Source: Candidatus Omnitrophota bacterium
GTDB lineage: Bacteria > Omnitrophota > Gorgyraeia > Zapsychrales > JANLHA01
Assembly (NCBI GenBank): GCA_040753435.1
Contig: JBFMEN010000058.1
Coordinates: forward strand, 18,817 to 82,816
Direction: 5' to 3'
DNA length: 64,000 nucleotides
Position 1 is the stretch's first letter, and each line of letters begins with the position of its first letter. The position numbers and the translations under genes are program-made. The notes beneath the pieces are model-generated. The model was not told the origin of the DNA and searched no databases. It was given only the letters and a program-made list of their open reading frames with translations. Below are positions 34,229-55,778 of this stretch, piece after piece.

Positions 34229-35305
34229 ATGTCTGATTGTGTGTTGGTTACAGGAGCATCCGGATTGATCGGGTCCCAAACTGTAGAGTTTTTTGCGGAA
34301 AAAGGATTCAAAGTCATTGGTATTGATAATGATATGCGCGCTTATTTCTTTGGTCCCGATGGCTCGACCTTATGGCGAAAAGTTGAACTTCAGAAGAAGT
34401 TTTCATCCTATGAACATCATGGTATTGATATTCGCGACAATGAGCAGTTAAAACATGTCTTTGAAGACTTTTCAGGAAACATCAAACTTATTGTCCATAC
34501 AGCCGCACAGCCTTCCCATGACTGGGCCGCGAGGGAGCCTTTGACTGATTTTGGGATTAATGCCTTCGCAACTCTCAACCTTCTTGAACTCACCCGCAAA
34601 CATTGCCCCAGGGCAATATTTATTTTCACCAGCACAAACAAAGTTTATGGAGATACCCCGAATTTTTTGCCATTGATAGAAAAGGAAACGCGTTGGGAGT
34701 TACCGGAAGGTCACCGATTTTTTGATGGAATTGACGAGACCATGAGCATTGATCAAAGCAAACATTCATTATTTGGGGCTTCGAAAGTGGCAGGGGATAT
34801 CCTTGTTCAGGAATATGGGAGATATTTCGGGATGAAAACAGCTTGTTTTCGGGGGGGATGTCTCACCGGTCCGAATCATTCAGGGGCGGAACTTCATGGG
34901 TTTTTATCCTATTTAATGAAATGTTGCGTTGAAAACCGTGTTTACAAAATTTTCGGCTATAAAGGCAAACAGGTTCGAGACAATATCCACTCTTTTGATT
35001 TAGTGAATGCTTTTTGGCATTTTTATCAAAATCCCAGGGAGGGTGAGGTTTATAATAGAGGCGGAGGCCGGGCCAACAGTTGTTCTATTCAAGAGGCAGT
35101 GGCCATTTGTGAAGAGGTTTCCGGGAAAAAACTCCGGACGGAATATGTGGAAACAAACCGTTCAGGAGATCATATCTGGTATATCTCGTCTTTGAGAAAA
35201 TTCATCAATCATTATCCCGGTTGGAGCATCACCATTAATCTAAAGGAGATATTGAAACAAATCCACATGCAGCTATCGAATGACAGCGAAAGGGAAAGAT
35301 TATGA
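34229..35305 (+). CDS. NAD-dependent sugar-nucleotide epimerase/dehydratase (CDP-paratose-2-epimerase-like SDR)
   Basis: Rossmann motif [12 protein letters not shown], an extended-SDR fold, and the catalytic YxxxK region (FGASKVAGD). Confidence 0.6.
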
Positions 35306-36243
35306 TTCATCATGAGGACAAAATCTATGTAGCCGGCCATCGGGGGATGGTTGGATCGGGTTTGGTCCGATTGCTTCATGAACGCGGCTTTCAAAACCTT
35401 GTCCTTAAAACCCATGAGGAGCTTGATTTATGTGACCAGAAAGCTGTGGCGGAATTTATGGCGCAAGAGAGACCCGATGTCGTGATTCTTGCCGCCGCTC
35501 GTGTCGGCGGTATCAAAGAGAATATGACCCACCTGGCCGAATTTCTTTACCAGAATTTGATGATTGAGACGAATGTGATCCACCAGTCGTATTTGAATGA
35601 TGTCCGCAAGCTTTGTTTTTTGGGAAGTTCGTGCATCTATCCCCGCGAATGCCCTCAGCCGATTAAGGAAGAATATTTAATGACCGGGCCGCTGGAACCG
35701 ACGAATGAGGGTTATGCTATCGCTAAGATCGCCGGAATGAAAATGGTCGAATTCTATCGTCGTCAATACCATCTCCAATGGATAAGCATCATGCCTTGTA
35801 ATTTATATGGCACGAATGACTCTTTTGATCTGGAAAGATCCCACGTGTTGTCGGCTTTGGTGAAAAAATTTGTGGATGCGGTCGATGACGGGAAAGAGGT
35901 TGTTGAAGTCTGGGGAACCGGTGCGGCCTTAAGGGAGTTTTTGCATGTTGATGACGCCGCAGATGGGATTTTATTTATTATGGATAATTATGATGGGGAC
36001 AAGACCATTAATTTGGGAAGCGGAACAGAAATCTCAATCAAGAATTTGGTGGATTTAGTAAAGATTTTAAGCGGTTATCAGGGCGGGATTCATTGGGATA
36101 ATGAAAAACCAGACGGAATGCTGCGGAAATGTATGGATGTTTCCCGGTTGAAATCTTTGGGGTGGAGACCGAAGATTTCTCTGGAGCAGGGAATCGAAAG
36201 AACGATTAAAGAGTACCGCCGGTTAAAAACCGTAAAGCAATAA
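35302..36243 (+). CDS. fcl: GDP-L-fucose synthase (GDP-4-keto-6-deoxymannose 3,5-epimerase/4-reductase)
   Basis: [19 protein letters not shown]…[14 protein letters not shown]…[35 protein letters not shown]…FLGSSCIYP is near-colinear with E. coli Fcl. Confidence 0.9.
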
Positions 36244-37026: not shown

Positions 37027-37280
37027 ATAACGGTATGAATAGTAATTCTGATTTACACCATCCCATGGGAAGTTTCCGTTACAAGAAAAATCCGGCGATA
37101 CCGGAAACCGGTATGTGCGTTTGAAGTTTTGATCCATATGATGATAAATCATTTGGGTAAAGTCAGGGGCTGCGTCCGTTTTGATCCGGAAAGGGTTGGT
37201 GATTTTTGGGGAGTTCCTGAGGCGCGCCAGATTATTATTTTTATCGATTGTTTTTAACCGCGACGAGAAAGGTGGGAAGA

Positions 37281-38120
37281 ATGATCGCAAAGATTGAAGA
37301 CCTGAAAAACAAGGCCGTTGAGATCAGAAAGCGAATGCTCGAGATGTGTATCAAAGCGGAGACCGGGCACGTTACTTCGTCGCTTTCATGCATCGACCTC
37401 CTGGTCGTTTTATATTATAGCGGTCACATGCATCATGATCCCCGCAATCCTGAATGGTCCGAACGGGACCGCTTTATTCTAAGTAAAGGCCAGGCCAGTC
37501 CGGCGCTGTACACCATTCTTGCGGATTGCGGTTATTTTAGCGAAAAGGATTTGGACAGCTTCGCCCAACCCGGAGGAAAGTTCGGAGTCCATCTTCAGGA
37601 CAGTGTTCCTGGGATTGAAATCACATCTGGTTCTCTGGGACAGGGATTCGGCACAGCGGCAGGGATGGCGCTGGGCGCTAAAATGGACCGCGATTTGCAC
37701 CTGGTCTTTACACTACTCGGCGACGGGGAGTGTTATGAAGGATCTATTTGGGAGACGGCCATGTTCGCGGCGCATAACCGTTTGAATAATCTGATCGCTA
37801 TTGTCGACCGGAACTATTTGTGCGTGACGGATTTTACCGAAAATCTGATTGAGCTTGAACCGATGAAGAGCAAGTGGGAGTCGTTCGGATGGGATGTGAC
37901 CTGGATTAACGGGCATTCGATGGAAGAGTTCATGACGGCATTGAATTCTGTCCGGTCCCGTCGTTCCAGCCGCCCGCTTGCGATTATTGCCGATACGGTC
38001 AAAGGGGAGGGAGTCGAATCGTTGTGTTACAATCCGCTTTGGCACGGCATCGCTCCCAAAGGAGCCGCGGCGATACGGGCGATGAGTGAATTTGAAAGGA
38101 GATTCTGCGGATATGAATAA
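37281..38120 (+). CDS. Transketolase, N-terminal (TPP-binding) subunit of a split transketolase
   Basis: …GHVTSSLSCIDLLVVLYY…GQGFGTAAGMALGAKM…LLGDGECYEGSIWE…; an RBS precedes the ATG at 37281. Confidence 0.8.
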   Translation: MIAKIEDLKNKAVEIRKRMLEMCIKAETGHVTSSLSCIDLLVVLYYSGHMHHDPRNPEWSERDRFILSKGQASPALYTILADCGYFSEKDLDSFAQPGGKFGVHLQDSVPGIEITSGSLGQGFGTAAGMALGAKMDRDLHLVFTLLGDGECYEGSIWETAMFAAHNRLNNLIAIVDRNYLCVTDFTENLIELEPMKSKWESFGWDVTWINGHSMEEFMTALNSVRSRRSSRPLAIIADTVKGEGVESLCYNPLWHGIAPKGAAAIRAMSEFERRFCGYE

Positions 38121-39048
38121 TATGAATTCTACCACTCAACGGGACGCGTTCTGGGATACCCTTTATGAAATGGCTCACGAGGACAAATCAATTGTGGTCG
38201 TTACGGCCGATATGGGAGCCCCGGCGCTCGATAAATTCCGTAAGGATTATCCCTCTCAATTTGTCAATGTCGGTATTGCCGAACAGAATGGAATTCTGGT
38301 GGCGGCCGGATTGGCCTTAACAGGAAAGAAGGTTTTTGCTTACGCCATCGCGCCGTTTATTACCCTTCGCTGCCTTGAACAGATCCGCGTTAATGACGCC
38401 ATCATGAAAATTCCAATTAATATAGTTGGGGTAGGGGCAGGGTTCGGATATCAGGATTCCGGTCCGACCCACCATATCATTGAAGACATCGCCGTAATAA
38501 GGTCCATGCCGAATGTCCAGATTCAAAGTGTTTCAGACAGCGTGATGGCGGCTGCTATGCCGAAGTTATGTTGCCAATTATCAACCACCCGCTATATCCG
38601 CCTGGATCGTTTGATTCTTCCGGCCCTTTATGATGAGGGCGCCGATTTTTCAAATGGGTTTGCAGTGTTGAAAGAGGGATCTGTGTATGTGGTAGCCACG
38701 GGAAGCATGGTGCATGTGGCCCTGGAAGTCTCCGGGAGACTGGAAAAGGAAAATTTTCGCCTGGGCGTGATCGACGCTTACCAGATCCCGCTTTCGTTAA
38801 ATTTGACTGATATTTTAAAAACGACCAAACGCGTCATTACCCTTGAAGAACATTTTCTGCCCGGAGGTTTGGGGAGCGCGGTTTGTGAACTTTTGCAGGA
38901 TCAAGAGGTGAATATCCCGGTTAAGCGTATCGGAATCACCCATCAAAAGCAGTATTGTTATGACTACGGCGGGCGCGATGCTATCCGCAAGTATTATGAC
39001 ATTGATCCGGACAGCGTGTTCCTGAAGATTAAAGAATATCTGGCTTGA
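38113..39048 (+). CDS. Transketolase, C-terminal (pyrimidine-binding) subunit
   Basis: …VVVTADMGAPALDKF…QFVNVGIAEQNGILVAAGLAL… plus a C-terminal transketolase_C-like region. It overlaps the N-subunit gene by ~8 nt; the exact start is uncertain. Confidence 0.75.
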   Translation: MNNMNSTTQRDAFWDTLYEMAHEDKSIVVVTADMGAPALDKFRKDYPSQFVNVGIAEQNGILVAAGLALTGKKVFAYAIAPFITLRCLEQIRVNDAIMKIPINIVGVGAGFGYQDSGPTHHIIEDIAVIRSMPNVQIQSVSDSVMAAAMPKLCCQLSTTRYIRLDRLILPALYDEGADFSNGFAVLKEGSVYVVATGSMVHVALEVSGRLEKENFRLGVIDAYQIPLSLNLTDILKTTKRVITLEEHFLPGGLGSAVCELLQDQEVNIPVKRIGITHQKQYCYDYGGRDAIRKYYDIDPDSVFLKIKEYLA

Positions 39049-39211: not shown

Positions 39212-40693
39212 ATGTCCAGAGATGTTGTCCTCGTAAATCCCAGTAATAAAAAACAGGTTTATGCTACTGTCAGTGATTCTCTTGTCGGAATAGAACCTCC
39301 GCTGTGGACTGCGCTTTTAGCCGCTTTCCTTAAGGAGAGGGGCTTTTCAGTCGCCATTATCGATGCCGATGCTGAAAACTACAGTCCCGAAGAAACGGCG
39401 GACAGGGTCCTGGAATATGATCCGTTGCTGGTAGGACTTGGAGCGATCGGCTCAAACCCTTCCGCGGCTTCCACGCCCAAGATGGCCGCTGTCCGTGCTG
39501 TTGGGCAGTTACTGAAACAACGGGCGCCTGATTTAAGAAGTATCATTTATGGAATCCATCCTTCCGGTCTCCCTGAACAGACCTTGAGGGAGGAACCGGT
39601 TGATTTTCTTTGCCGGGGTGAAGCCTTTTTCCCCTTTGCCGAGTTTTTGAAACGGCTTAAAAAGGGAGACTGCGGGCCGGAGTATGATATTAAAGGGCTA
39701 TGGTATCGTCGAGGTAATACGATTGTGGATCATGGCTGGGCAGACATCGTACAGGATCTGGATTCGCTTCCTTTTGCCTCATGGGATCTTTTGCCAATGA
39801 ACAAATACCGCGCCCATAACTGGCATTGTTTCGGCCACATCAATGAACGTTCTCCATACGCGATGATCCACACAAGTCTCGGATGTCCCTATCATTGCCA
39901 TTACTGCAATATTCACGCGCTTTACGCCGGGAAGCCGGGCATCCGTTATCGGAGTCCTGAAAAGGTGGTGGAAGAAATCGATTTGCTTGTTGAACGATAT
40001 GGAATCAGGCATCTTAAATTCCTGGATGAATTGTTCATCATGAAACATCCGCGAGTCGAGAAGATTTGTGATTTGCTGATTGAGCGGAATTATGGTTTGA
40101 ATATCTGGGCCTACGCGCGCATCGACACGGTGACACCTGAATTACTAAAAAAAGCCAGGGCTGCCGGTATTAACTGGGTTTGTTACGGGATCGAGGCGGG
40201 AAGCAAGAACGTTCGGACCGGCGTATCGAAAGGGAGATTTGACCAGGAGGCGATTGACCGCGCGGTAAAGATGGCTTATGACGCGGGTATGTATATTCTG
40301 GGCAACTTTATGTTCGGCCTTCCTGATGACGACATGAGTACGATGCATGAAACGTTTGAATTGGCGAAAACTATCAACTGCGAATACATCAACTTTTATA
40401 CGACGATGGCTTATCCCGGATCGCCTCTCTATGATGACGCCGTAAAACAGGGACTGCGTCTGCCGGAAACATGGCTGGGTTTTTCCCAATTCAGCCGACA
40501 GACCGTACCGCTGCCGACGAAATATTTATCTCCCGAGGATGTGCTGGGTTTTCGGGACCGGGCTTTTGTCGAATATTTCAGCCGGCCTGAATATCAGGAA
40601 AAAATTCTCCGCATATTCGGGCAGGAAACTGTTGATCACGTAAAGCGCCTGTTAACAAAACCTTTACAACGTGATTTATTGGTTAGCAAATAA
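39212..40693 (+). CDS. B12-binding-domain radical SAM enzyme (class B radical SAM methyltransferase-like)
   Basis: An N-terminal cobalamin-binding Rossmann-like segment (VVLVNPS…LAAFLKERGFSVAIIDAD) is followed by the radical SAM cluster TSLGCPYHCHYCNI. Confidence 0.7.
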   Translation: MSRDVVLVNPSNKKQVYATVSDSLVGIEPPLWTALLAAFLKERGFSVAIIDADAENYSPEETADRVLEYDPLLVGLGAIGSNPSAASTPKMAAVRAVGQLLKQRAPDLRSIIYGIHPSGLPEQTLREEPVDFLCRGEAFFPFAEFLKRLKKGDCGPEYDIKGLWYRRGNTIVDHGWADIVQDLDSLPFASWDLLPMNKYRAHNWHCFGHINERSPYAMIHTSLGCPYHCHYCNIHALYAGKPGIRYRSPEKVVEEIDLLVERYGIRHLKFLDELFIMKHPRVEKICDLLIERNYGLNIWAYARIDTVTPELLKKARAAGINWVCYGIEAGSKNVRTGVSKGRFDQEAIDRAVKMAYDAGMYILGNFMFGLPDDDMSTMHETFELAKTINCEYINFYTTMAYPGSPLYDDAVKQGLRLPETWLGFSQFSRQTVPLPTKYLSPEDVLGFRDRAFVEYFSRPEYQEKILRIFGQETVDHVKRLLTKPLQRDLLVSK

Positions 40694-41821
40694 ATGGACT
40701 TAAACCGGCAGGATTGCCTGAAAAAAACATTTGCTGAAGATCTGCGGATTAAACGGCAATCCGAATTAGACGGGGTGATCGTCGGTTACTGGTCTTATTA
40801 TGAAAATCAATGTCTGAATAATCAGCGGTTCCTGCGTTCAGATTTCGGCACCAATGAAAATTGTTTGAAAAAATACAACGAGCTTTACGCGCGGGGTAGG
40901 GAAGAGAAGATCCATTTCCTGAGCCTCGACTTGATTGACGATTTCTCCAAGGTGGATCTTTTTGTTTTCTCGGACGTTCCGAAAAAGAACAGCCTGCTTG
41001 CCAAGAAGGCTTATGCCCAGAACAAGCCCATGTTTTTAATCCTTGAAGAGTCAGCGGTTGTCTATCCGAGAAACTGGGACTTGAAGAACCATGAGCCATT
41101 CGAGAAAATTCTGACCTGGGATGACAGGTTTGTCGATAATAAAAAATATTTTAAATTTAACCATTATTTTATCGCAACGCGAACAGTTCCCAGAAATATT
41201 GATGAAAAAAAGAAACTTTGCGTGACTATCGCGGCCAATAAAAAGTCGGCTCATCCTCTTGAACTCTATTCGGAAAGGGAACGCGCGATCCGGTGGTTTG
41301 AAAAATATCATCCGGAAGATTTTGACCTTTACGGTTTCGGCTGGGATGAACGGGCTTTTCCTATGGATATCCCGTTGATCAGATTATTAAACGGGCGCAA
41401 GATGAAGTTTCTCCGCAAATATCTCGCGCCGAAGTATCCGTCCTGGAGAGGCACTGTTAAAAAAAAGAGCGATATTCTCGGCCGATACTGGTTTTCGATC
41501 TGTTATGAAAACGCGAGGGATATTACCGGTTATATTTTGGAAAAGATATTCGATTGTTTTTTTTGCGGGACTGTTCCGGTCTACCGCGGCGCCGACAACA
41601 TCGGTGATTATATTCCCAAAGAATGCTATCTGGACCAGCGGGATTTCAAAAATTATGATGAGTTATATGACGTGATGAAGCGCATGTCACGGGAGGAGTA
41701 TCTGTCTTATCTGGACAACATTGAAGCGTTTTTAAACAGCGAAGCGGCCGGGATTTTCTCCAGTGAATATTTTGTCGGGCTTGTTTTGACCGAAATCCGA
41801 AAGTCATTAAATAAAGGATGA
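40694..41821 (+). CDS. GT10-like (alpha-1,3-fucosyltransferase-type) glycosyltransferase, tentative
   Basis: The C-terminal region YWFSICYENARDITGYILEKIFDCFFCGTVPVYRG resembles the conserved FENS…YVTEK…VPVV motif block of family GT10 fucosyltransferases. Confidence 0.45.
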   Translation: MDLNRQDCLKKTFAEDLRIKRQSELDGVIVGYWSYYENQCLNNQRFLRSDFGTNENCLKKYNELYARGREEKIHFLSLDLIDDFSKVDLFVFSDVPKKNSLLAKKAYAQNKPMFLILEESAVVYPRNWDLKNHEPFEKILTWDDRFVDNKKYFKFNHYFIATRTVPRNIDEKKKLCVTIAANKKSAHPLELYSERERAIRWFEKYHPEDFDLYGFGWDERAFPMDIPLIRLLNGRKMKFLRKYLAPKYPSWRGTVKKKSDILGRYWFSICYENARDITGYILEKIFDCFFCGTVPVYRGADNIGDYIPKECYLDQRDFKNYDELYDVMKRMSREEYLSYLDNIEAFLNSEAAGIFSSEYFVGLVLTEIRKSLNKG

Positions 41822-42739: not shown

Positions 42740-44434
42740 ATGATCAAAGAGGAAATTAAAAAATTCAGAGTTTTGTATCTGATACTGAGGCCTGCGTTCA
42801 GGGCTGGCCGTTATTTAAAGGAACTGACGCGATATTTTTTGGCCAGATTTTTTTCCCGCCCCTATTTTGGGCGTTACATGCTGGCGGGATTGGCATGGCC
42901 GGAGCGTCAGGAGGCCATGAAAAGTTTGTTAAGAAAAGAATTGGCCGCCTCCGGCAAGGAATTCAATATTCTGGAAATAGGGACATGGGCCGGCTCTTCT
43001 GCTTTTATCTGGGCCGGCATTTGTAAAGAAGAGGGAAAGGGCAAAATTTTTTGTGTCGACCATTGGCGGGCTTCGCCAAACAGTCCCGAAGTAATGAAAA
43101 AGGCTGTCAAAAATGACCGCATTTTTAACTTGTTTTTACATAACATGAGAGCGGGTGGGCATGAGAATGTTTTTTCGTTGAGGGGACCCAGTGATGAGTT
43201 GCTGAAAGTATTAAAGCCTGAAAGTTTTGATTTTATTTATGTCGATGGAGACCACGGCTATTCCCAGGCCAGAAAAGATATCCTTAGCGCCGTTTCATTG
43301 TTAAAGGATGGGGGAATTATATGCGGAGATGATTTGGACGTCCATCCAGATTCCGTCGAACAGGAATTTCTTCAACAGCATAAAGAAGAGGATTATGTCC
43401 AGTACCCGTCCACCGGGGAATATTTACATCCGGGGGTAGCGCTGGTCATTAAAGAGATATTTGATGAGGTTGACTGTTGGAACGGGTTTTGGGCTGTTAG
43501 AAAGAATCAATCCGGCTGGGAAAAAACAGGTCTGAAAACAGCCGGCGCCGGTTCTCTTGAAATCAGTGGTTTTGATTTTTTTATTGATCGTGAAAAAGGA
43601 AAGCCTTGTCTGGTTGCTGGTAACGCCCCGAGCATTCAGAGTTTTCCTTTCAACGATTTTAAAGGTGTTTCGATCTTGATGAATTCAGGGCCCGTGTTAT
43701 TGAAAGGGAAAATAGCTCCTGATTATTGGATGTCCGCCAATTATTATTATCCGATCCCTGATAAAGACTTTCATGAGATTAATCGTTATATGAATACGGT
43801 TTTTATTTTTTCAGATACGGCTGTTTATCTTAAAAGAAACTCTTATAACCATTCTTCTATTGATCAGAAATTAAATATCCCCTGGTTCGCTTTTGATGTT
43901 TTTCACAGCAATGGAGAACCGTGCCAGCCACGGCGTGGATGTTGCGAGGTCCTGAAACAGTATCCGGACCGCCTCAGCATTTTTGAATTTTTAAAAAAGC
44001 ATTATCAGACGCGATCGACGATGCCCACGCCGAATACGGCCGTCGTTTTTTCCCTCGCGTTTGCCGTCTTGATGGGCTGTTCTCCGATCTATGTCAACGG
44101 AGTTGAGCTTCCTCAACAGATGAAAGATTACCGGCAGGGCGGATTTTTAGGGTTATGCGGAAGCGCGAATCCTTATGCCAACGGAATATATAATTGGTAT
44201 TTAATCCTTGGCGCATGGATAAAAAAGTGGTTCCTGAAGAAAGAAGCACCTTCTGCATTTGTCGAGAATATCGACGATACCCTTGAAGCCTTTCGTTATT
44301 TATATGATGTCGCCTGTTTCAGGGGGCAGAAGATTTATAATTTGAGCGAGACTTCCTTGCTTGAGAAGGAAAAAGTGTTGCCGTATCTTGATCCGGACAA
44401 GGTTCGTCCTAATCCGCTAAACAGGAAGGGCTAA
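42740..44434 (+). CDS. Class I SAM-dependent methyltransferase (TylF/Methyltransf_24-like) with ~300-aa C-terminal domain of unknown function
   Basis: …FNILEIGTWAGSSAFIWA…FDFIYVDGDHGYSQARKDILSAVSLLKDGGIICGDDL…. Confidence 0.6.
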   Translation: MIKEEIKKFRVLYLILRPAFRAGRYLKELTRYFLARFFSRPYFGRYMLAGLAWPERQEAMKSLLRKELAASGKEFNILEIGTWAGSSAFIWAGICKEEGKGKIFCVDHWRASPNSPEVMKKAVKNDRIFNLFLHNMRAGGHENVFSLRGPSDELLKVLKPESFDFIYVDGDHGYSQARKDILSAVSLLKDGGIICGDDLDVHPDSVEQEFLQQHKEEDYVQYPSTGEYLHPGVALVIKEIFDEVDCWNGFWAVRKNQSGWEKTGLKTAGAGSLEISGFDFFIDREKGKPCLVAGNAPSIQSFPFNDFKGVSILMNSGPVLLKGKIAPDYWMSANYYYPIPDKDFHEINRYMNTVFIFSDTAVYLKRNSYNHSSIDQKLNIPWFAFDVFHSNGEPCQPRRGCCEVLKQYPDRLSIFEFLKKHYQTRSTMPTPNTAVVFSLAFAVLMGCSPIYVNGVELPQQMKDYRQGGFLGLCGSANPYANGIYNWYLILGAWIKKWFLKKEAPSAFVENIDDTLEAFRYLYDVACFRGQKIYNLSETSLLEKEKVLPYLDPDKVRPNPLNRKG

Positions 44435-44914
44435 ATGACTCTTAAAGATATCGATTTGATTGTTTATGACTTTGATGGCGTAATGACGGACAATCGCGTC
44501 CTTGTTTTTCAAAATGGACAGGAAGCTGTTTTTTGCAACCGTTCTGACGGAATGGCTGTTTCTTTTTTAAAAGAGAAAGGAGTCCGTCAGGTTATCCTTT
44601 CGACTGAGGAAAACGGGGTGGTTTCAGCCCGGGCCAGAAAACTTGGCATTGAATGTATTCAGAATGCCCATGACAAGAAAAAAGAACTTGTTGGTTTCGT
44701 CAAAAAAAACGGGATAGATCTTGAAAAGGTTTTGTATATCGGCAATGACCTTAACGACCTTGAGGCGATGAAGGTAGCCGGTTATGCCATGTGCCCCGAG
44801 GATGCCGCGGATGAAATCAAAAATTTAGTTAATCAGGTTATTCCGGAAAAAGGGGGGCATGGTGTTATTCGACGATTATGGGATATTTTAACCACAGGTG
44901 AAAAAGATGAATAG
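44435..44914 (+). CDS. HAD-IIIA sugar-phosphate phosphatase (KdsC / nonulosonate-9-phosphate phosphatase-like)
   Basis: DLIVYDFDGVMTDN carries the HAD motif I (DxDGV). The size is 159 aa, and YIGNDLNDLEAM is motif IV. Confidence 0.75.
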   Translation: MTLKDIDLIVYDFDGVMTDNRVLVFQNGQEAVFCNRSDGMAVSFLKEKGVRQVILSTEENGVVSARARKLGIECIQNAHDKKKELVGFVKKNGIDLEKVLYIGNDLNDLEAMKVAGYAMCPEDAADEIKNLVNQVIPEKGGHGVIRRLWDILTTGEKDE

Positions 44915-45662
44915 GGCGATTTTTATTACAGTGAGAACTGGCTCATCCCGTCTTCCTCAAAAGGCCTTGAAAGAGATTTGCGGTGCGCCGGCCATCGTTC
45001 AGTTGATCAGAAGGGTGAGGCATTCGGTCATGGCAGAAGGGATCGTTCTTTGCACAACAGAGCTTCCGGAAGATGATATATTAGTCGAGATTGCGAAAAA
45101 TGAAGAGATCGGCTTTTTCAGGGGAAGCGTGAAAGATAAATTAATAAGATGGCATGGCGCGGCCAGTCAATTCAAAGTTGAATTTTTCGTGACTGCCGAC
45201 GGGGACGATCTTTTATGTGAACCGGAACTGATCGACCTGGCTTTCCGGCAGTATGAGAGGGAATCGCCCGATTTTATTGAAGGAACAGGGCTTGTCTGCG
45301 GATCATTTACTTATGGGATAAAGGCCTCGGCGTTAAGTAAGGTTTGCGAAATTAAAGATTCAGAAGATACTGAAATGATGTGGGTTTATTTTAAGGACAC
45401 CGGTTTGTTCGAGTGCGCCGAATTGAAAGATGTTCCCGATATTTTTAAAAGACCGGAAATCCGGATGACGCTGGATTATGAGGACGATCTCAGGTTTTTC
45501 AGGACGATCTTCAATCATTTTAAAGGCGGATATGCCGGCCTTCGGGAAGTGATCGAGTATCTGGATCAACATCCCGACGTGATTAAGATCAATCAGTATC
45601 TTCAGGAAAGGTTTCTCGAGAACCAGAAGAAAAGGACAACGTTGATTTTAAAAAGGAAGTAA
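44898..45662 (+). CDS. CMP-sugar cytidylyltransferase (NeuA/SpsF-like, CTP_transf_3 fold)
   Basis: AIFITVRTGSSRLPQKAL… is an N-terminal glycine/arginine nucleotide-binding loop typical of acylneuraminate/KDO cytidylyltransferases. Confidence 0.65.
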   Translation: MKKMNRAIFITVRTGSSRLPQKALKEICGAPAIVQLIRRVRHSVMAEGIVLCTTELPEDDILVEIAKNEEIGFFRGSVKDKLIRWHGAASQFKVEFFVTADGDDLLCEPELIDLAFRQYERESPDFIEGTGLVCGSFTYGIKASALSKVCEIKDSEDTEMMWVYFKDTGLFECAELKDVPDIFKRPEIRMTLDYEDDLRFFRTIFNHFKGGYAGLREVIEYLDQHPDVIKINQYLQERFLENQKKRTTLILKRK

Positions 45663-45665
45663 GGC

Positions 45666-46883
45666 ATGGATAAACTGACCAACCCGATCAAATATCTCGG
45701 CAATGAACTGGAGTACTTGAAAAAGGTCCTGGAGTCCGAAAGCTGGTCGGCGACCGCAGGCAGCTGGAACCGGGTTTTTGAAAAGGCCTTTGCTGAAAAA
45801 TGCGGGGTCCAATACGCTGTGGCGATGAATTCGGGCACTTCAACCCTTCATGCTGCTCTGGAAGCGGCGGGGGTTGGGCCAGGAGATGAAGTGATCTCTC
45901 CGGCTTTGACTGTTTTCATGAATACATCTTCCACCATTCATGCCAACGCTGTTCCTGTTTACGCAGATATCGATCCTCTGACATGGACAATCGATCCAAA
46001 GGATGTGGTTAAAAAAATTACCGCAAAGACAAAAGCCATTATGCCCGTCGCGCTTTATGGCCTCCCTCCTGATATGGATCCGATAATGGAATTGGCAGAC
46101 AAGCATGGTCTGGTCGTGATAGAAGATAACGCGCAGTGTTTCGGGAGTCTTTATAAGGGCAGAAAGACCGGTACCATCGGGCACATGGCAAGTTACAGTT
46201 TTGAAAATACAAAACATATTTCCTGCGGAGAAGGCGGCGCCGTTATTACCAATGATGAAATTTTAGCGGAAAAAGTGAGAAAGGTCGGAGGGCATGGATT
46301 CAAGAATTTAACTGCCTCAGAGGGGAGAGTCCGTTTGAGGGCTGAAGAGTTCCAGCATCCGGATTATAAAAGGCACAGTGAATTGGGGTGGAATTACCGT
46401 TTACCCGAATTTAACGCGGCCGTGGCCCTGGCCCAGCTGGAACGCGTTGATGAGCTTGTCCGGTTGCGGATAGAATCCGCCAATATGTTCATTGACGTGA
46501 TGAGGGAGTGTGACTTTTTGAAGCCGCAAGCGGAGCCGGACGGATATACCAATACATATTACACTCTCGGAGTTCTTTATGAAGGAGAGGAAAAACTTGG
46601 GGTCTCCTGGAAAGAATTCAGAAAAAGGTATGTTGATATGGGAGGAGACGGTATCTATGGCGCATGGAGTGTGCCGTATCTCGAACCCGTGATGGTTAAC
46701 AGGACTTATGTGAAACGTTGTCCATGGGTGTATGAACGCGTTCGATACGGAAAGGGGTTGTGCCCAACGGCTGAACGGATTCAGCCCAGACTGATGCAGT
46801 TCAAGACAAATTACAGGGATCTGGATCTGGCCAGACAAAAGGCCGATATTTTAAAAAGACTTATTCGGGAATTAAAAAAGTAA
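45666..46883 (+). CDS. DegT/DnrJ/EryC1/StrS-family PLP-dependent sugar aminotransferase
   Basis: …YAVAMNSGTSTLHAALEAAGVGPGDEVISPALTVF… and an active-site region around …SFENTKHISCGEGGAV…. Confidence 0.8.
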   Translation: MDKLTNPIKYLGNELEYLKKVLESESWSATAGSWNRVFEKAFAEKCGVQYAVAMNSGTSTLHAALEAAGVGPGDEVISPALTVFMNTSSTIHANAVPVYADIDPLTWTIDPKDVVKKITAKTKAIMPVALYGLPPDMDPIMELADKHGLVVIEDNAQCFGSLYKGRKTGTIGHMASYSFENTKHISCGEGGAVITNDEILAEKVRKVGGHGFKNLTASEGRVRLRAEEFQHPDYKRHSELGWNYRLPEFNAAVALAQLERVDELVRLRIESANMFIDVMRECDFLKPQAEPDGYTNTYYTLGVLYEGEEKLGVSWKEFRKRYVDMGGDGIYGAWSVPYLEPVMVNRTYVKRCPWVYERVRYGKGLCPTAERIQPRLMQFKTNYRDLDLARQKADILKRLIRELKK

Positions 46884-46892
46884 AAGGAACAT

Positions 46893-47948
46893 ATGTTCGA
46901 TATCGGATTTTATCAGAAAATTTATGATTTAAAATACCGTCTGATGGGCGGGGAAAAGGTCGGCCGTGATTTTCTGTGGGAGATGCTGGAACAGAGCCGT
47001 TCCAGAACGCCGGTAGTTTATAATATTGAAACGACGAACGCCTGTAACATGAAATGCGCGATGTGTCCCCGGACAACGATGATGACCCGCAAGATAGAGA
47101 CAATGTCTCTGGGCCTCTTTGAGAAAGTCGTTGATCAGCTTTCGGCGTTTTCAAATGATGAATGGGGGCGCTGGCAGGACTTCGCGGAAGCAAAGTACAA
47201 GGTCAGCCGTCAGGGAATGAGCGAAAACCATTTCTTTCTTTATGTGATCCCCAAAGTAATCGTGCTGCATGGTTATGGGGATCCGTTGCTAGATAAATAT
47301 ATGCCTGAAAGGGTGAAGATGCTGACGGAGAGGGGAATAGAGTCATATTTCAGCTGCAATCCGGCCAACATCAGTATTGATAAAACTCTTGAGATGTTTG
47401 AGAACGGATTGGGCTATATTAAATATTCGGTTGAGAGTGTTGACGACATGAAACATAAAAAGATCAGGGGAGAGGCTTCTGATTTCTCTAAAAGTTATGA
47501 AAAGATATGCCGTTTGCTGAAATACAAGAAGGACAAAATGTATAAGACCGCGATTGTGATTACCATGCTTAACCTTTATGGAAAAAATCAGGAGGCGGAG
47601 TTCGTGGAGCTTAAGAAAGCGTTTGAAGGCCAGGATGTGTATCTCTATTTAAAAAGTCAGGATCAGCAATGGTATCAGAAAGAATATTACGGAACGAAAT
47701 CGATTCACTGGCTTGAATTCTGTCAGTTCCCCTGGTCATCTATGACGGTCAAATCAAATGGCGAAGCCGCCATGTGCGTCGAAGATTTCAACAATGAAAT
47801 TATTTTGGGGGATTGCGGCCGCGAAACCCTGGCAGATATCTGGAACGGGCCGCGTTATGAGCGGCTGAGGAGAGACCATTTTAATAAAACCCCGGGGATT
47901 AAGTGCACCGAGCAATGCGATATGAAATTATTTAACAGTTGTTTTTAA
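46893..47948 (+). CDS. Radical SAM / SPASM-type domain enzyme embedded in the sugar pathway
   Basis: TTNACNMKCAMCPRTT is the CxxxCxxC cluster. The C-terminal Cys-rich segment (…AAMCVED…GDCG…CTEQCDM) is an auxiliary-cluster/SPASM-like region. Confidence 0.65.
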   Translation: MFDIGFYQKIYDLKYRLMGGEKVGRDFLWEMLEQSRSRTPVVYNIETTNACNMKCAMCPRTTMMTRKIETMSLGLFEKVVDQLSAFSNDEWGRWQDFAEAKYKVSRQGMSENHFFLYVIPKVIVLHGYGDPLLDKYMPERVKMLTERGIESYFSCNPANISIDKTLEMFENGLGYIKYSVESVDDMKHKKIRGEASDFSKSYEKICRLLKYKKDKMYKTAIVITMLNLYGKNQEAEFVELKKAFEGQDVYLYLKSQDQQWYQKEYYGTKSIHWLEFCQFPWSSMTVKSNGEAAMCVEDFNNEIILGDCGRETLADIWNGPRYERLRRDHFNKTPGIKCTEQCDMKLFNSCF

Positions 47949-47968
47949 AGTAATAACCGGAGAAAAAA

Positions 47969-48829
47969 ATGAAATTTTCGGAACTCAAAAGTTTGTATCT
48001 TATTGCAGAGATCGGGATTAATCATAACGGCGATATGCAGATCGCCAAGAAACTGATCGATGCCACTCATGCATGTTCATGGCACTGCGTCAAGTTTCAA
48101 AAACGTAATCCGGACGTATGCGTTCCGGAAGATCAAAAGAATGTAATGAGGGATACGCCCTGGGGACGAATGACATATCTGGAATACAAGTACCGCATGG
48201 AGTTCGGTAAGGAGGAGTACGATTACATTGACAAGTACTGCCGTGAAAAGCCCATCTCCTGGACGGCATCGGTATGGGATATGGACAGCCTCGGGTTTCT
48301 TTTGAATTACGATGTCCCGTTCATAAAGATCCCGTCCGCTCATTTGACGAACAAAGAGATGCTGGAGGCGTGCGGGAAGTCGGGCAAATCAATAATCCTC
48401 TCAACCGGGATGTCCACTCTCGATGAAATCGATTCGGCCGTGGATCTTTTAAGAAAACTCGATGTGGACTTTTTGCTGATGCACACTAATTCCAGTTATC
48501 CCACGCCCACCAATGAATTAAATCTTAACTGTATCAAAACTTTACGTGAACGATACGGCTGTGAGATCGGCTACAGCGGGCATGAGTATGGTTTGGAACC
48601 GACTGTTTTTGCCGCTGTTCTCGGAGCGAAAGTCATCGAGCGCCATATTACTCTCGATCATGAAATGTGGGGGACCGATCAGAAGGCCAGTATCGCTCCT
48701 ATGGGCATGGATATGCTTTATAAGCGTATCAGAGATGTTTCGGCCATTTTAGGGGATGGCCTGAAAAGGGTCACGGAGAGTGAGATTTCCGTCATTCAGC
48801 GGTTGAGAGGAAATACCATTAAAAAATGA
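47969..48829 (+). CDS. NeuB-family nonulosonic/ulosonic acid synthase (PEP-condensing), no C-terminal SAF domain
   Basis: LIAEIGINHNGDMQIAKKLIDA…VKFQ…YSGHEYGLEPTVFAAVLGAKVIERHITLD is colinear with the NeuB catalytic TIM barrel. It ends at 286 aa. Confidence 0.8.
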   Translation: MKFSELKSLYLIAEIGINHNGDMQIAKKLIDATHACSWHCVKFQKRNPDVCVPEDQKNVMRDTPWGRMTYLEYKYRMEFGKEEYDYIDKYCREKPISWTASVWDMDSLGFLLNYDVPFIKIPSAHLTNKEMLEACGKSGKSIILSTGMSTLDEIDSAVDLLRKLDVDFLLMHTNSSYPTPTNELNLNCIKTLRERYGCEIGYSGHEYGLEPTVFAAVLGAKVIERHITLDHEMWGTDQKASIAPMGMDMLYKRIRDVSAILGDGLKRVTESEISVIQRLRGNTIKK

Positions 48830-50313
48830 AAGAAAAAAGAGATTTTATAGTGATCGGATTAGGCAATATTCTGCATACTCTGATAGTATTCGCCTCGATC
48901 CGTTTAATGACATTTTTCCTTTCGCCAAAAGAGATGGGGGAATATTCATTATTTTATGCTTTCGGCACCATGTTTTTTTCATTGTTCATTGTTCCGGCGT
49001 CACTTTACATGCAGCGAAAGGTATTGGAATGGGCGGAAGCCGGCACACTCGCGGCGTATACTCAAAAGTTTTTGATTTATCTTTCAGCCGTCGGGATTTT
49101 ATCCGGGGCCCTGGCAGTCTTGATAAAAATTGTATTTGATATTGCCCTGCCTTTTTCTAACAGCACGTTTTTTATCCTGGTGAGCGCGGTCACTGTTTTC
49201 ATGAACGGCAACGCTTTTTTTTTCAGCACGTTCAATCTGTTTCAGATGCGGTTCAAATATGTGATATTTTCTTCGTTGACGGCCCTGTTCATTTTTATCG
49301 GAGGTGCAGTTTTCGTATTTTCCTTCGGCAGAAATTCTTTTAACTGGATATCCGGCCAGGTTGTCGGTCATCTTTTGATGATGGCGTTAAGCGGCATCCT
49401 TTTTTTCCGTTTTATATCATCAAAAGAGAGCAGGAAAGGTCTATGGACATGGTCGCGAAATAAAGAAGATATTTCTGGTTTTTTAACTTTTGTTTTTCCA
49501 GTCGTAGCCGGAAGTTTTGTTCTGTGGATTCAAAGCGAATCTTACCGGTTTTTCCTTGGAAGGTTGGCGGGAGTAGAAATGCTGGGGCTTTTTTCTGTAG
49601 GCTTCACCATGGCCAACCGGGTGGTTGAAAAGTTTGATACACAGTTCTCCAATTTTTATAATCCGATTTTTTATAAAGATATTATTGCCAATGACAGTGA
49701 TGAGCAGAAGATAAAGGCATGGGCCAATTACGCTCAAATGTACATCCCCTCGATCTTGATCGCCGTGCTGTTCGTCTTTTCTTCTGCGTCTTTGCTGGAA
49801 AAGATCCTCATCGACCCGCAGTATCACGGGGTTTCCGTAGAAACAATCCGCTGGGGAAGTGTGGTCATGGGACTTTTTTCTCTTTTGTCGTTGTACCGGA
49901 TGATCGGTATCGCCAAATTAAAAATGGAAGGAATTCTTATCCCCTATATTCTTGGCGCTGCCGTGATGACTTTTTCCATCGTTTTTCTGGCGCCTCTTGC
50001 GCCTGTCACGGGAACAGGCTTTTCAATGGCGGCAGGCGCCTTTGTCTCTACCTTCACATTGCATATTGAAATGAAGAAGATCCTTCCCGTAAGGTTTCCA
50101 AAGAAGATGTTATTGAAGACATCGCTTTTTTCCGTCCCGCTGATCAGTTATTTAATGATTGATTCCTGTGTTCCTAAAGATCTCATCAGTTGTTTGTTTT
50201 TCCTGATCGTTTTGGGAGGATATACGGCGTTTTCCATTTTCTATCTTACAAACAATGAAATCAGTTCAAGAAATCTTAAAAATAATGCGGATTTAATAAA
50301 GGTGGCGCAGTGA
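48826..50313 (+). CDS. Wzx-type polysaccharide/oligosaccharide flippase (MOP superfamily)
   Basis: About 12-14 TM helices; the N-terminal segment …LGNILHTLIVFASIRLMTFFLSPKEMGEY… is typical of PST-family flippases. Confidence 0.65.
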   Translation: MKEKRDFIVIGLGNILHTLIVFASIRLMTFFLSPKEMGEYSLFYAFGTMFFSLFIVPASLYMQRKVLEWAEAGTLAAYTQKFLIYLSAVGILSGALAVLIKIVFDIALPFSNSTFFILVSAVTVFMNGNAFFFSTFNLFQMRFKYVIFSSLTALFIFIGGAVFVFSFGRNSFNWISGQVVGHLLMMALSGILFFRFISSKESRKGLWTWSRNKEDISGFLTFVFPVVAGSFVLWIQSESYRFFLGRLAGVEMLGLFSVGFTMANRVVEKFDTQFSNFYNPIFYKDIIANDSDEQKIKAWANYAQMYIPSILIAVLFVFSSASLLEKILIDPQYHGVSVETIRWGSVVMGLFSLLSLYRMIGIAKLKMEGILIPYILGAAVMTFSIVFLAPLAPVTGTGFSMAAGAFVSTFTLHIEMKKILPVRFPKKMLLKTSLFSVPLISYLMIDSCVPKDLISCLFFLIVLGGYTAFSIFYLTNNEISSRNLKNNADLIKVAQ

Positions 50314-54767: not shown

Positions 54768-55778
54768 ATGTCACAAAAAACCGCGCTGATTACCGGCGTT
54801 ACTGGCCAGGACGGATCTTATTTAACGGAATTTTTATTGAATCGAGGGTATAAAGTTTACGGGCTCATCCGGCGTTCGAGTTCTTTCAACACCGGAAGGA
54901 TCGATCATTTGTATCAGGATGTGCACATCAAGGATGCAAATTTGCGTCTTGTTTACGGCGATTTAAGCGATGCGAGTTCTTTGTCCCGTCTGCTGAAGGG
55001 TATCGACCCAGATGAGATCTACAATCTGGGCGCCCAAAGCCATGTGCGGGTAAGTTTCGATATCCCTGAATATACTGCGGATATTACAGCGTTAGGGACA
55101 ATCCGTTTGCTGGAGGCGATTCGCGACACCGGGATCAGAACTAAATTTTATCAGGCATCAAGTTCAGAGATGTTCGGCAAGGTTCAGGAAATTCCGCAAA
55201 AGGAGACGACACCTTTTTATCCACGCAGTCCTTATGGTGCGGCGAAGGTCTATGCCTATTGGATGACTGTGAATTACAGGGAGGCTTATAAGTTATTTGC
55301 CTGTAACGGCATCCTTTTTAATCACGAATCCCCAAGACGGGGGGAAACATTCGTTACCAGAAAAATTACCAAAGCGCTTGCCCGTATTAAACATGGGGTT
55401 CAGGACAAGTTGTATCTGGGAAATCTGGACGCGAAGAGAGATTGGGGCTATGCGGATGATTATGTCGAGGCTATGTGGTTGATGCTTCAAGCCGGTGAGC
55501 CGGATGATTATGTGATCGCCACGGGAGAGACACATTCTGTTCGTGAATTTTTACAAGAGGCCTTCGGGTATGCCGGACTGGACTGGAAGAAATATGTTGA
55601 AATCGATTCGAGATATTTGCGGCCGACCGAGGTTGACATTCTTATCGGTGACAGTACAAAAGCCCGGCAAAAGCTTGGATGGAAACCGCGTGTGGCTTTT
55701 AAAGAACTGGTCAAAATGATGGTTGAGGCGGACATGAGATCGGTCGAAAAAGAACTTTACGGGACGAAAAAGATGTAA
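54768..55778 (+). CDS. gmd: GDP-mannose 4,6-dehydratase
   Basis: [46 protein letters not shown]… is near-colinear with E. coli Gmd. Confidence 0.9.

Follow-up and report, generated by a model that had tools for sequence, protein, structure and literature searches.

Introduction

Nonulosonic acids (sialic, legionaminic and pseudaminic acids and Kdn) rank among the key determinants of surfaces, and the textbook routes to them use, to our knowledge, only steps that depend on NAD(P), pyridoxal phosphate (PLP) or acetyl-CoA. Here, we describe a cassette of five genes in which a radical S-adenosylmethionine (SAM) enzyme is embedded among genes for ulosonic acid synthesis. The cassette spans positions 44435–48829 of a 64,000-nucleotide stretch of DNA from a Candidatus Omnitrophota bacterium, a member of an uncultured phylum (assembly GCA_040753435.1, contig JBFMEN010000058.1, positions 18,817 to 82,816), which is called the window below. 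It encodes a phosphatase of the haloacid dehalogenase (HAD) superfamily, a cytidylyltransferase, a DegT-family aminotransferase, the radical SAM enzyme and a NeuB-family synthase.

The core of the cassette resembles the Kdn pathway of Bacteroides thetaiotaomicron (KDN-9-P synthase, BT1713 and CMP-Kdn synthetase), in that both combine a cytidylyltransferase and a NeuB-family synthase with a HAD phosphatase, which is of the C0 type in Bacteroides and probably so here. The structure of the Kdn phosphatase (PDB 3e81) is a homologue of the HAD protein of the window, and the NCBIfam model that fits this protein best is that of the KDN-9-P phosphatase. Unlike the cassette, the Bacteroides pathway has neither a radical SAM enzyme nor an aminotransferase, and the cassette proteins score below its equivalog cutoffs. 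The legionaminic and pseudaminic acid pathways (LegC/PseC, LegI/PseI, LegF/PseF) also bring a DegT aminotransferase, a NeuB-family synthase and activation with cytidine monophosphate (CMP) together in one cluster, but they set the amino groups on nucleotide-hexoses after 4,6-dehydration and before condensation, and do so without a HAD phosphatase or a radical SAM enzyme; the cassette misses all of their equivalog cutoffs widely and lacks the SAF domain.

The oxidation of an ulosonic acid hydroxyl followed by transamination with a DegT-family enzyme, which is the logic proposed here, is known from the Kdo8N pathway of Shewanella (alcohol oxidase KdnB and aminotransferase KdnA), and the window aminotransferase is clearly homologous to KdnA (structure 5k8b, E 6.5e-44). 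The oxidant KdnB is a metal-dependent alcohol dehydrogenase and not a radical SAM enzyme, and the Kdo8N route starts from the 8-carbon Kdo of a KdsA-type synthase, whereas the cassette has a NeuB-family synthase. In the synthesis of butirosin (2-deoxystreptamine), BtrN and BtrS (BtrR) likewise combine a Twitch-type radical SAM enzyme carrying one Cys4 cluster with a DegT aminotransferase. They convert a secondary alcohol through a ketone into an amine, as we propose for the cassette pair, and the BtrR-type aminotransferase 2c7t (Gln:2-deoxy-scyllo-inosose) aligns with residues 20–358 of the window DegT protein. The substrate of BtrN is a cationic aminocyclitol in an antibiotic context, whereas that of the cassette is presumed to be an anionic ulosonic acid or its CMP ester, made for a surface glycan. 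In apramycin C3' deoxygenation (AprD4/AprD3) and in desosamine synthesis (DesII), a radical SAM enzyme acting on a sugar gives a keto product that is taken up by the reductase AprD3 or the aminotransferase DesV; AprD4 and DesII have no sequence-level similarity to the window enzyme, and DesII is its best fold match. Compared with these systems, the cassette is a Kdn-type synthase/phosphatase/cytidylyltransferase core joined to a BtrN/BtrS-like alcohol-to-amine pair.

Results and Discussion

The radical SAM protein and its predicted auxiliary cluster

The radical SAM protein matches Pfam Radical_SAM (50.9 bits, cutoff 29.5) and SPASM (47.5 bits), and no NCBIfam model comes near its cutoff. We compared the cysteines of 120 close homologues and of 19 further relatives with as little as 27% identity, and the superfamily motif C51-x3-C55-x2-C58 was invariant in both sets. 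The protein has 11 Cys, and exactly seven of them are universal, namely C51/C55/C58 and C277/C295/C338/C342; C308 and C350 are not conserved. The four universally conserved C-terminal Cys thus predict an enzyme of the Twitch type with one auxiliary cluster, at C277/C295/C338/C342. An earlier note on this DNA, made from the letters and an open reading frame (ORF) list, had named the protein a radical SAM/SPASM enzyme; the radical SAM assignment and the Pfam SPASM match stand, but a full SPASM domain, with seven Cys and two auxiliary clusters, does not, and the SPASM match reflects the half-motif that both types share.

BtrN was the only sequence-level relative in PDB. With the family profile, residues 277–328 align with BtrN 169–220 (E 2e-10), which places C277 and C295 opposite C169 and C187, ligands of the auxiliary cluster in BtrN; the CX3CX2C motif and the GGE-like segment (HGYGDPLL against HFYGEPLL in BtrN) align too. 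The two proteins are not orthologues: three short segments align, identity is ~16%, the TM-score is ~0.44–0.61 and the genomic context is different. The window enzyme is ~100 aa longer and has a conserved 40-aa N-terminal helix pair and a ~40-aa insert after CX3CX2C. That it works like BtrN is therefore put forward as a hypothesis. The AlphaFold2 (AF2) model of the protein (pLDDT 86.9, pTM 0.88) has DesII as its top Foldseek match, and the nearest structures also include BtrN, SuiB, BlsE, SkfB and anSME (TM ~0.45–0.55); the sugar-modifying enzymes DesII, BtrN and BlsE are all among the top seven. Set against the BtrN, DesII and AprD4 families that had been named for comparison, the enzyme is similar in sequence to BtrN and has DesII first by fold, and AprD4 (6fd2) ranks 46th.

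A pseudogene is ruled out by an intact ORF that aligns end to end with more than 100 homologues. The family has ~1500 members, and an exhaustive search among representatives at 50% identity showed it to be compact, with one main cluster and ~20 full-length clusters at 34–49% identity, beyond which only generic radical SAM/SPASM proteins were met. Many Arg and Lys residues are invariant in the family, R60, R66, K254 and R326 among them. The phage and plasmid collections contained no family member, and the distant radical SAM/SPASM matches in them (e.g., on Brachyspira plasmids) were at most 26% identical. The earlier view that a radical SAM enzyme lies outside the canonical nonulosonic acid routes is upheld by the missing match to any curated model and by the full-text literature searched, which held nothing on a radical SAM/SPASM enzyme in nonulosonic acid, sialic acid or NeuB pathways, though journals outside that literature may do so. 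The family, at present without a curated model, offers annotators a handle for recognising such cassettes.

The radical SAM gene is linked to NeuB, HAD and cytidylyltransferase genes in at least six phyla

We collected ~95 loci of the family. Reference genomes supplied 13 of them, ten with a gene for a full-length member, metagenomes supplied 80, and exact-protein look-up added several more. Their ORFs were called and clustered, and CTP_transf_3 genes were counted from phmmer seeds with a Pfam check. Linkage was counted within a 5-kb radius in the 44 loci whose sequence extends ≥3 kb beyond the radical SAM gene in both directions. A CTP_transf_3 gene was found in all 44, NeuB in 43 and a KdsC-like HAD gene in 40–42. 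With these three genes present in nearly every adequately flanked locus, a chance insertion of the radical SAM gene can be set aside.

The loci come from Omnitrophota, Anaerolineae (Chloroflexota), Sedimentisphaerales/Planctomycetia (Planctomycetota), Desulfobacterota, Negativicutes/Veillonellaceae and Nanoarchaeota/Woesearchaeota (DPANN archaea), that is, from at least six phyla, and Pelolinea submarina (Anaerolineae) is a cultured isolate with a family member. The combination of the radical SAM gene with NeuB, HAD and cytidylyltransferase genes is thus widespread and not peculiar to this genome. No other cassette protein is as well conserved across these phyla as the radical SAM enzyme, which has 63–67% identity to the window copy, compared with 49–70% for DegT, 34–65% for NeuB, 29–54% for HAD and 25–36% for the cytidylyltransferase. 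An enzyme so conserved would add a new step to nonulosonic acid chemistry, and the cassette would predict undescribed sugars in mostly uncultured organisms. In the majority architecture, a GFO_IDH_MocA gene, a short-chain dehydrogenase/reductase (SDR, ~271 aa), a CTP_transf_3::HAD fusion, the radical SAM gene, a SAF-less NeuB and a KpsS-like Capsule_synth protein are found together. The window-type architecture has HAD, NeuB, cytidylyltransferase, DegT and radical SAM genes in varying order, often with a B12-radical SAM gene.

The Anaerolineae-type contigs (L014, L025, L040, L043, L058, L064 and others; e.g., L043:1886-17047) carry a conserved cluster of ~15 genes. Its first part reads ~311-aa protein, GT2, GFO_IDH_MocA, SDR, CTP_transf_3::KdsC-HAD fusion, radical SAM and SAF-less NeuB, and it goes on with the KpsS-like Capsule_synth protein (~540 aa), another CTP_transf_3, a PGDH-like 2-hydroxyacid dehydrogenase, another SDR, an MptE-like/DUF115 protein and GT2. 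A single locus of this type can hold as many as four cytidylyltransferase genes. In the Desulfobacterota loci (L002:3873-6149; L003, L004, L034, L048), the partner is a fusion protein of 758 aa, in which NeuB is joined to SAF and AP_endonuc_2 (xylose-isomerase-like TIM barrel) and which has an extra N-terminal region of ~130 aa. A Nanoarchaeota locus has a second radical SAM/SPASM gene (L015:1770-2816, minus strand) of 23% identity, which lies beside methyltransferases and a CDP-alcohol phosphatidyltransferase.

The partner of the radical SAM enzyme alternates between an SDR and an aminotransferase

The ~271-aa SDR was present in 28 of the 44 loci and DegT in nine; no locus had both and seven had neither. 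This mutual exclusion gave a Fisher p of 1.6e-5, which is indicative only, the loci being phylogenetically related. In one of the seven, the Nanoarchaeota locus L015, a class III aminotransferase adjoins the radical SAM gene. The exchange of partners can be followed in the loci L091 and L074, which are 94% identical in HAD, 87% in NeuB, 83% in radical SAM and 82% in the downstream methyltransferase. Between NeuB and the radical SAM gene, one of them has a cytidylyltransferase and DegT, and the other has a CTP::HAD fusion and an SDR. The radical SAM proteins of DegT and SDR loci are 66% identical to each other (up to 84%), and those within a type 69%. The aminotransferase proposed in the earlier note for a modified-ulosonate route is indeed present in the window; in the family as a whole, it is one of two alternative partners, the other being the SDR.

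More distant relatives keep similar company. The 49%-identical relative at L099 (193-13638) has a class IV aminotransferase one gene away, in a cluster of NeuB, B12-radical SAM and cytidylyltransferase genes; a 43%-identical relative lies directly downstream of a GFO_IDH_MocA gene, and a 35%-identical one has an SDR immediately after it and no NeuB in its neighbourhood. In most DegT-type loci, we found no extended-SDR or 4,6-dehydratase-like gene nearby that could supply a ketone. An alternation between SDR and aminotransferase points to a keto intermediate, and the simplest reading of these gene sets is that the radical SAM enzyme makes a carbonyl, which would then be either transaminated or reduced.

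The L099 locus also encodes a GT29 protein (the eukaryote-type sialyltransferase family), an MptE-like protein, a SAF-less NeuB, two CTP_transf_3 proteins, a KdsA-like DAHP_synth_1 and a transaldolase/FSA-family protein. An AHBA_syn/DegT-type aminotransferase (ORF305) beside a radical SAM 'maturase' (ORF306) has been reported in cyanophage S-SCSM2R (PMC12801897), and a tblastn search of the phage collection gave no match to the radical SAM family of the window.

The five cassette genes are intact, and their products fall below every curated equivalog cutoff

The five genes lie on the + strand with spacings of −17, +3, +9 and +20 nt, and the co-directional, tightly packed or overlapping arrangement that had been described for them agrees exactly with the coordinates of the ORF list. 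Their domain calls (HAD, CTP_transf_3, DegT, radical SAM and NeuB without SAF) held up in Pfam. The proteins were also compared with the curated equivalog cutoffs of NCBIfam, and active-site motifs were read directly in the sequence: catalytic motifs are intact in all five, and none of the five reaches any NCBIfam equivalog cutoff.

The HAD protein matches Pfam Hydrolase_3/HAD, and its size and motif (cap-less, ~160 aa, DxD at D12/D14) fit the KdsC/KDN-9-P C0 type. Its nearest PDB relatives are KdsC and BT1713-type phosphatases, and its best NCBIfam matches, KDN-9-PPhBT (93.9 bits, cutoff 180) and KdsC (85.2 bits, cutoff 106.95), are both sub-cutoff. The cytidylyltransferase scores 54.6 bits with CTP_transf_3 and has the R-x-x-S-x-R-x-P-x-K motif of the N-terminal loop (R13-S16-R18-K22); the KdsB and PseF models match it weakly (≤36 bits, cutoffs 155–281), and the sole PDB match is 6oew, entered as 'Cytidylyltransferase'. 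Its true start is likely ATG 44907 and not GTG 44898, because AGGTG precedes the ATG. The aminotransferase matches DegT_DnrJ_EryC1 with 281.8 bits and has the catalytic K183 in SFENTK, and it stays below the cutoffs of the LegC family (215.6 bits, cutoff 420) and PseC (208.6 bits, cutoff 423.5). Its PDB relatives are perosamine synthetases (best, E ~1e-60), the BtrR-type Gln:2-deoxy-scyllo-inosose aminotransferase and the Kdo8N transaminase.

The synthase belongs to the NeuB family (PF03102; 238 bits over residues 29–265, with E14, H205 and H226 present). The nearest models, NeuB_NnaB (TIGR03569; 243.9 bits, cutoff 399.65) and PseI (TIGR03586; 165.2 bits, cutoff 340.25), are both missed, and the protein fits no known pathway cleanly. 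No SAF domain was found by Pfam, and the C-terminal SAF part appears to be missing, since the NeuB_NnaB profile is matched only from position 2 to 274 of 329. The best PDB match, 6ncs, is likewise a 290-aa chain too short for a SAF domain. The literature mentions SAF-less NeuB proteins solely as a class found in environmental bacteria (PMC8208679).

A candidate transferase domain is fused to the gene upstream

The gene just upstream of the HAD gene ends with its stop codon at 44434, leaving a 0-nt gap, and its product has a Methyltransf_24 domain (SAM methyltransferase) at residues 78–198. The C-terminal domain of ~285 aa (43574–44431) is a stand-alone protein of ~280 aa in 16 homologues and has no Pfam assignment. 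Its AF2 model (pLDDT 85.4) was compared with PDB by Foldseek, and the top 16 matches are all sialyltransferases, 15 of them Cst-I/Cst-II, with TM of 0.37–0.52. The E-values are 9e-7 to 1e-4 for Cst-II/Cst-I and 5.8e-4 for the Pasteurella multocida sialyltransferase, and ST8SiaIII is weaker. No sequence match to PDB or Pfam above threshold was found for this domain, and the similarity comes from the fold search alone. Its motif CLVAGNAPS presumably corresponds to the AGNGPS of Cst-II, which we take it to resemble. The domain, with its predicted GT42 sialyltransferase-like fold, is a candidate transferase for a CMP-ulosonic acid. The earlier note had begun the module at the HAD gene; the part it delimited is confirmed, but the GT42-like domain upstream had been left out.

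In the locus L104 (SDBT01001808.1, 8001-14387), a stand-alone homologue of this domain lies between a GT10-like gene and HAD-NeuB-CTP. This arrangement and the GT42-like fold together speak for the cassette as the source of a CMP-ulosonic acid donor. L104 and the window share a common frame of GT10, transferase, HAD, NeuB and Wzx genes at 34–54% identity, the flippase-like gene being 37% identical to that of the window. L104 has no radical SAM gene; an AP_endonuc_2 protein (xylose-isomerase-like TIM barrel), a GFO_IDH_MocA protein and an SDR replace DegT and the radical SAM enzyme, with a TylF-type methyltransferase beside them. This set may accomplish in an NAD-dependent way what the radical SAM step does in the window.

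Proposed pathway and its alternatives

In the model that we prefer, and hold with moderate confidence, one secondary alcohol of an ulosonate would undergo a BtrN-like two-electron oxidation and then transamination by the DegT enzyme. The SAF-less NeuB would condense phosphoenolpyruvate with a phosphorylated aldose, possibly mannose-6-phosphate, the KdsC/KDN-9-P-type HAD enzyme would remove the phosphate, and the CTP_transf_3 enzyme would form the CMP-sugar. The 5'-deoxyadenosyl radical of the Twitch enzyme would abstract a carbinol hydrogen and the second electron would pass to the Cys4 auxiliary cluster, giving the ketone as in BtrN, which the aminotransferase would turn into an amine, possibly methylated by the neighbouring methyltransferases. 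The sugar would then be transferred by the GT42-like domain into a Wzx-dependent surface glycan. In the sister loci, an SDR would reduce the same ketone instead.

A phosphorylated aldose as substrate and an ulosonate phosphate as product are indicated by the phosphatase, which consistently adjoins NeuB or is fused to the cytidylyltransferase; the same logic operates in the Kdn and animal sialic acid routes. The tight adjacency of cytidylyltransferase, DegT and radical SAM genes and the invariant Arg and Lys residues mildly favour an anionic, possibly CMP-bound, substrate of the radical SAM enzyme. The sequence affinity to BtrN alone and the universal Cys4 site favour a dehydrogenase. A route to an unusually modified (deoxy/amino) ulosonic acid, as suggested in the earlier note, is supported by these findings; its product, the radical SAM reaction, the identity of the substrate, the carbon attacked, the order of CMP activation, oxidation and transamination, and dehydrogenase rather than dehydratase chemistry are what we infer from gene content and homology.

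A wider proposal is made tentatively. The Twitch enzyme may be a dehydrogenase, widespread mainly among anaerobes, that oxidises a Kdn-like (possibly CMP-bound) ulosonic acid to a keto intermediate serving as a hub, from which interchangeable aminotransferases of three folds or SDR reductases would lead to undescribed amino-, epi- and deoxy-ulosonic acids. If so, these products would be found on the surfaces of Omnitrophota, Anaerolineae, Planctomycetota, Desulfobacterota, Negativicutes and DPANN archaea, and one possible outcome would be an NAD-independent route from Kdn to a neuraminic-acid-type sugar.

Several points weigh against the dehydrogenase model, and some of them speak for its main rival, which we regard as unlikely: that the radical SAM enzyme is an AprD4/DesII-like 1,2-diol dehydratase or lyase, which would convert a vicinal diol of the ulosonate, e.g., in the glycerol-like side chain, into a deoxy-ketone, so that DegT would give an amino-dideoxy sugar and the SDR of the sister loci a deoxy sugar. 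An alternating SDR/aminotransferase partner fits this reading equally well, and the pairing with an SDR recalls the dehydratase and reductase AprD4/AprD3. Radical chemistry is needed for deoxygenation and not for simple alcohol oxidation. The overall identity to BtrN is only ~16% and the top Foldseek match, DesII, is a lyase. The set that replaces DegT and the radical SAM enzyme in L104 fits a dehydrogenase/dehydratase/reductase deoxygenation route equally well, and its GFO_IDH_MocA, AP_endonuc_2 and SDR proteins resemble the IolG/IolE-type set that oxidises, dehydrates and reduces. Beyond this rival, the GFO_IDH_MocA oxidoreductase of the majority architecture could itself make the ketone, and the locus counts include related metagenome contigs and so overstate independence. 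What speaks for the dehydrogenase is that the Cys4 auxiliary site is conserved in every family member, whereas we know of no such cluster in the characterised sugar lyases and dehydratases DesII and AprD4, and that the sole sequence-level similarity is to the dehydrogenase BtrN, with AprD4 far down the fold ranking. The two readings predict products of different mass.

It is improbable, in our judgement, that the radical SAM reaction supplies nothing to the aminotransferase and is instead a C-H epimerisation (HygY/NeoN-like) or a rearrangement of the carbon skeleton in the ulosonate or its precursor, and that DegT aminates a 4-keto-6-deoxy nucleotide sugar of other origin, e.g., to GDP-perosamine from the product of GDP-mannose 4,6-dehydratase. 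Twitch-type radical SAM epimerases exist, and the window has such a dehydratase gene 6 kb downstream of the cassette; both this gene and the perosamine synthetases as best PDB matches of DegT, whose best NCBIfam match is the LegC family, also count against the dehydrogenase model. A DegT fed by this dehydratase as a GDP-perosamine synthase is possible for this genome alone, and it is weakened by the DegT orthologues (49–70%) that neighbour the radical SAM gene in loci where no dehydratase-like gene was seen. The non-cluster residue Cys155, a conceivable hydrogen donor of an epimerase, is invariant in the close family, but relatives of 35–47% identity that keep the SDR pairing have R, Y, M, V, A or T in its place, and it was not used as evidence. 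The exclusivity of SDR and aminotransferase and the three unrelated aminotransferase folds would also be left unexplained by a role apart from the aminotransferase. Very improbable is a peptide or protein maturase (anSME-, SkfB- or SuiB-like) that is a mere neighbour of the sugar genes, e.g., one serving the FGE-sulfatase-domain protein of the cluster. SPASM/Twitch enzymes are mostly peptide or protein modifiers, and anSME, SuiB and SkfB are among the Foldseek matches; the co-location with NeuB, HAD and cytidylyltransferase genes across phyla is, however, independent of any sulfatase or precursor peptide, and the family has one auxiliary cluster against two in anSME. An anSME-like maturase for that protein was rejected on the linkage statistics and the single cluster.

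The cassette in its polysaccharide locus

The cassette sits in a + strand polysaccharide locus of ~23 kb (34229–57486), which holds two SDR epimerase/dehydratases, a WecG-type transferase, a GT10-like protein, three methyltransferases, a Wzx-like flippase, GT2, GT1, a Bac_transf initiating transferase, GDP-mannose 4,6-dehydratase and an FGE-sulfatase-domain protein (Table 1). A protein encoded in the window is 100% identical to one from a Candidatus Omnitrophota MAG. The surface-glycan context that had been proposed for the cassette is confirmed by the flippase, GT2, GT1, Bac_transf, GT10-like and dehydratase genes around it. The start of the flippase gene overlaps the NeuB stop by 4 nt and ties the cassette to a surface glycan; its product matches Polysacc_synt (22.6 bits, cutoff 28.2) and Polysacc_synt_3 (19.7 bits, cutoff 23), both below cutoff. 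It is an evenly balanced proposition, in our view, that 42740–48829 forms one operon-like module for making, modifying and transferring a CMP-activated amino-3-deoxy-2-ulosonic acid of a Kdn/sialic-acid-like kind. A scan for promoters and terminators gave counts near the shuffled expectation and was uninformative.

Table 1. Genes of the cassette and of its surroundings in the window.
Feature	Positions	Strand	Basis
ORF, 427 aa, between DsbD-like membrane protein and UvrD helicase genes	30187–31470		
SDR epimerase	35302–36243		
Transketolase, N-terminal half	37248–38120		
Transketolase, C-terminal half	38086–39048		
B12-binding radical SAM protein	39212–40693		
GT10-like protein (fucosyltransferase C-terminal domain)	40694–41821		
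Two-domain Methyltransf_24/GT42-like protein, 564 aa	42740–44434	+	Pfam and fold search
HAD phosphatase, probable C0 type of the KdsC/KDN-9-P phosphatase kind, 159 aa	44435–44914	+	Pfam, NCBIfam, PDB
CTP_transf_3 cytidylyltransferase (predicted CMP-sugar synthetase type), 254 aa	44898–45662	+	Pfam
DegT/DnrJ/EryC1-family PLP aminotransferase, 405 aa	45666–46883	+	Pfam
Radical SAM enzyme, predicted Twitch-type C-terminal domain, 351 aa	46893–47948	+	Pfam, Cys conservation
SAF-less NeuB-family phosphoenolpyruvate-condensing ulosonic acid synthase, 286 aa	47969–48829	+	Pfam
Wzx-like polysaccharide flippase	48826–50313	+	Weak sub-cutoff Pfam matches
GDP-mannose 4,6-dehydratase	54768–55778		
FGE-sulfatase-domain protein, 562 aa	55798–57486		

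The 427-aa ORF has no Pfam family at E ≤ 1e-3. The protein at the end of the glycan locus carries its FGE-sulfatase (formylglycine-generating-enzyme-like) domain at the C terminus. That the same glycan has a GDP-fucose or 6-deoxyhexose branch is suggested by the GT10-like protein, the GDP-mannose 4,6-dehydratase and the SDR epimerase. The transketolase of the locus is split into two overlapping ORFs with the B12-binding radical SAM gene downstream, and the same trio is found near the radical SAM/DegT cassette in L019 and L027; in L104, the C-terminal half of the transketolase is present. The transketolase halves and the B12-radical SAM protein suggest a two-carbon branch or a C-methyl modification of a sugar.

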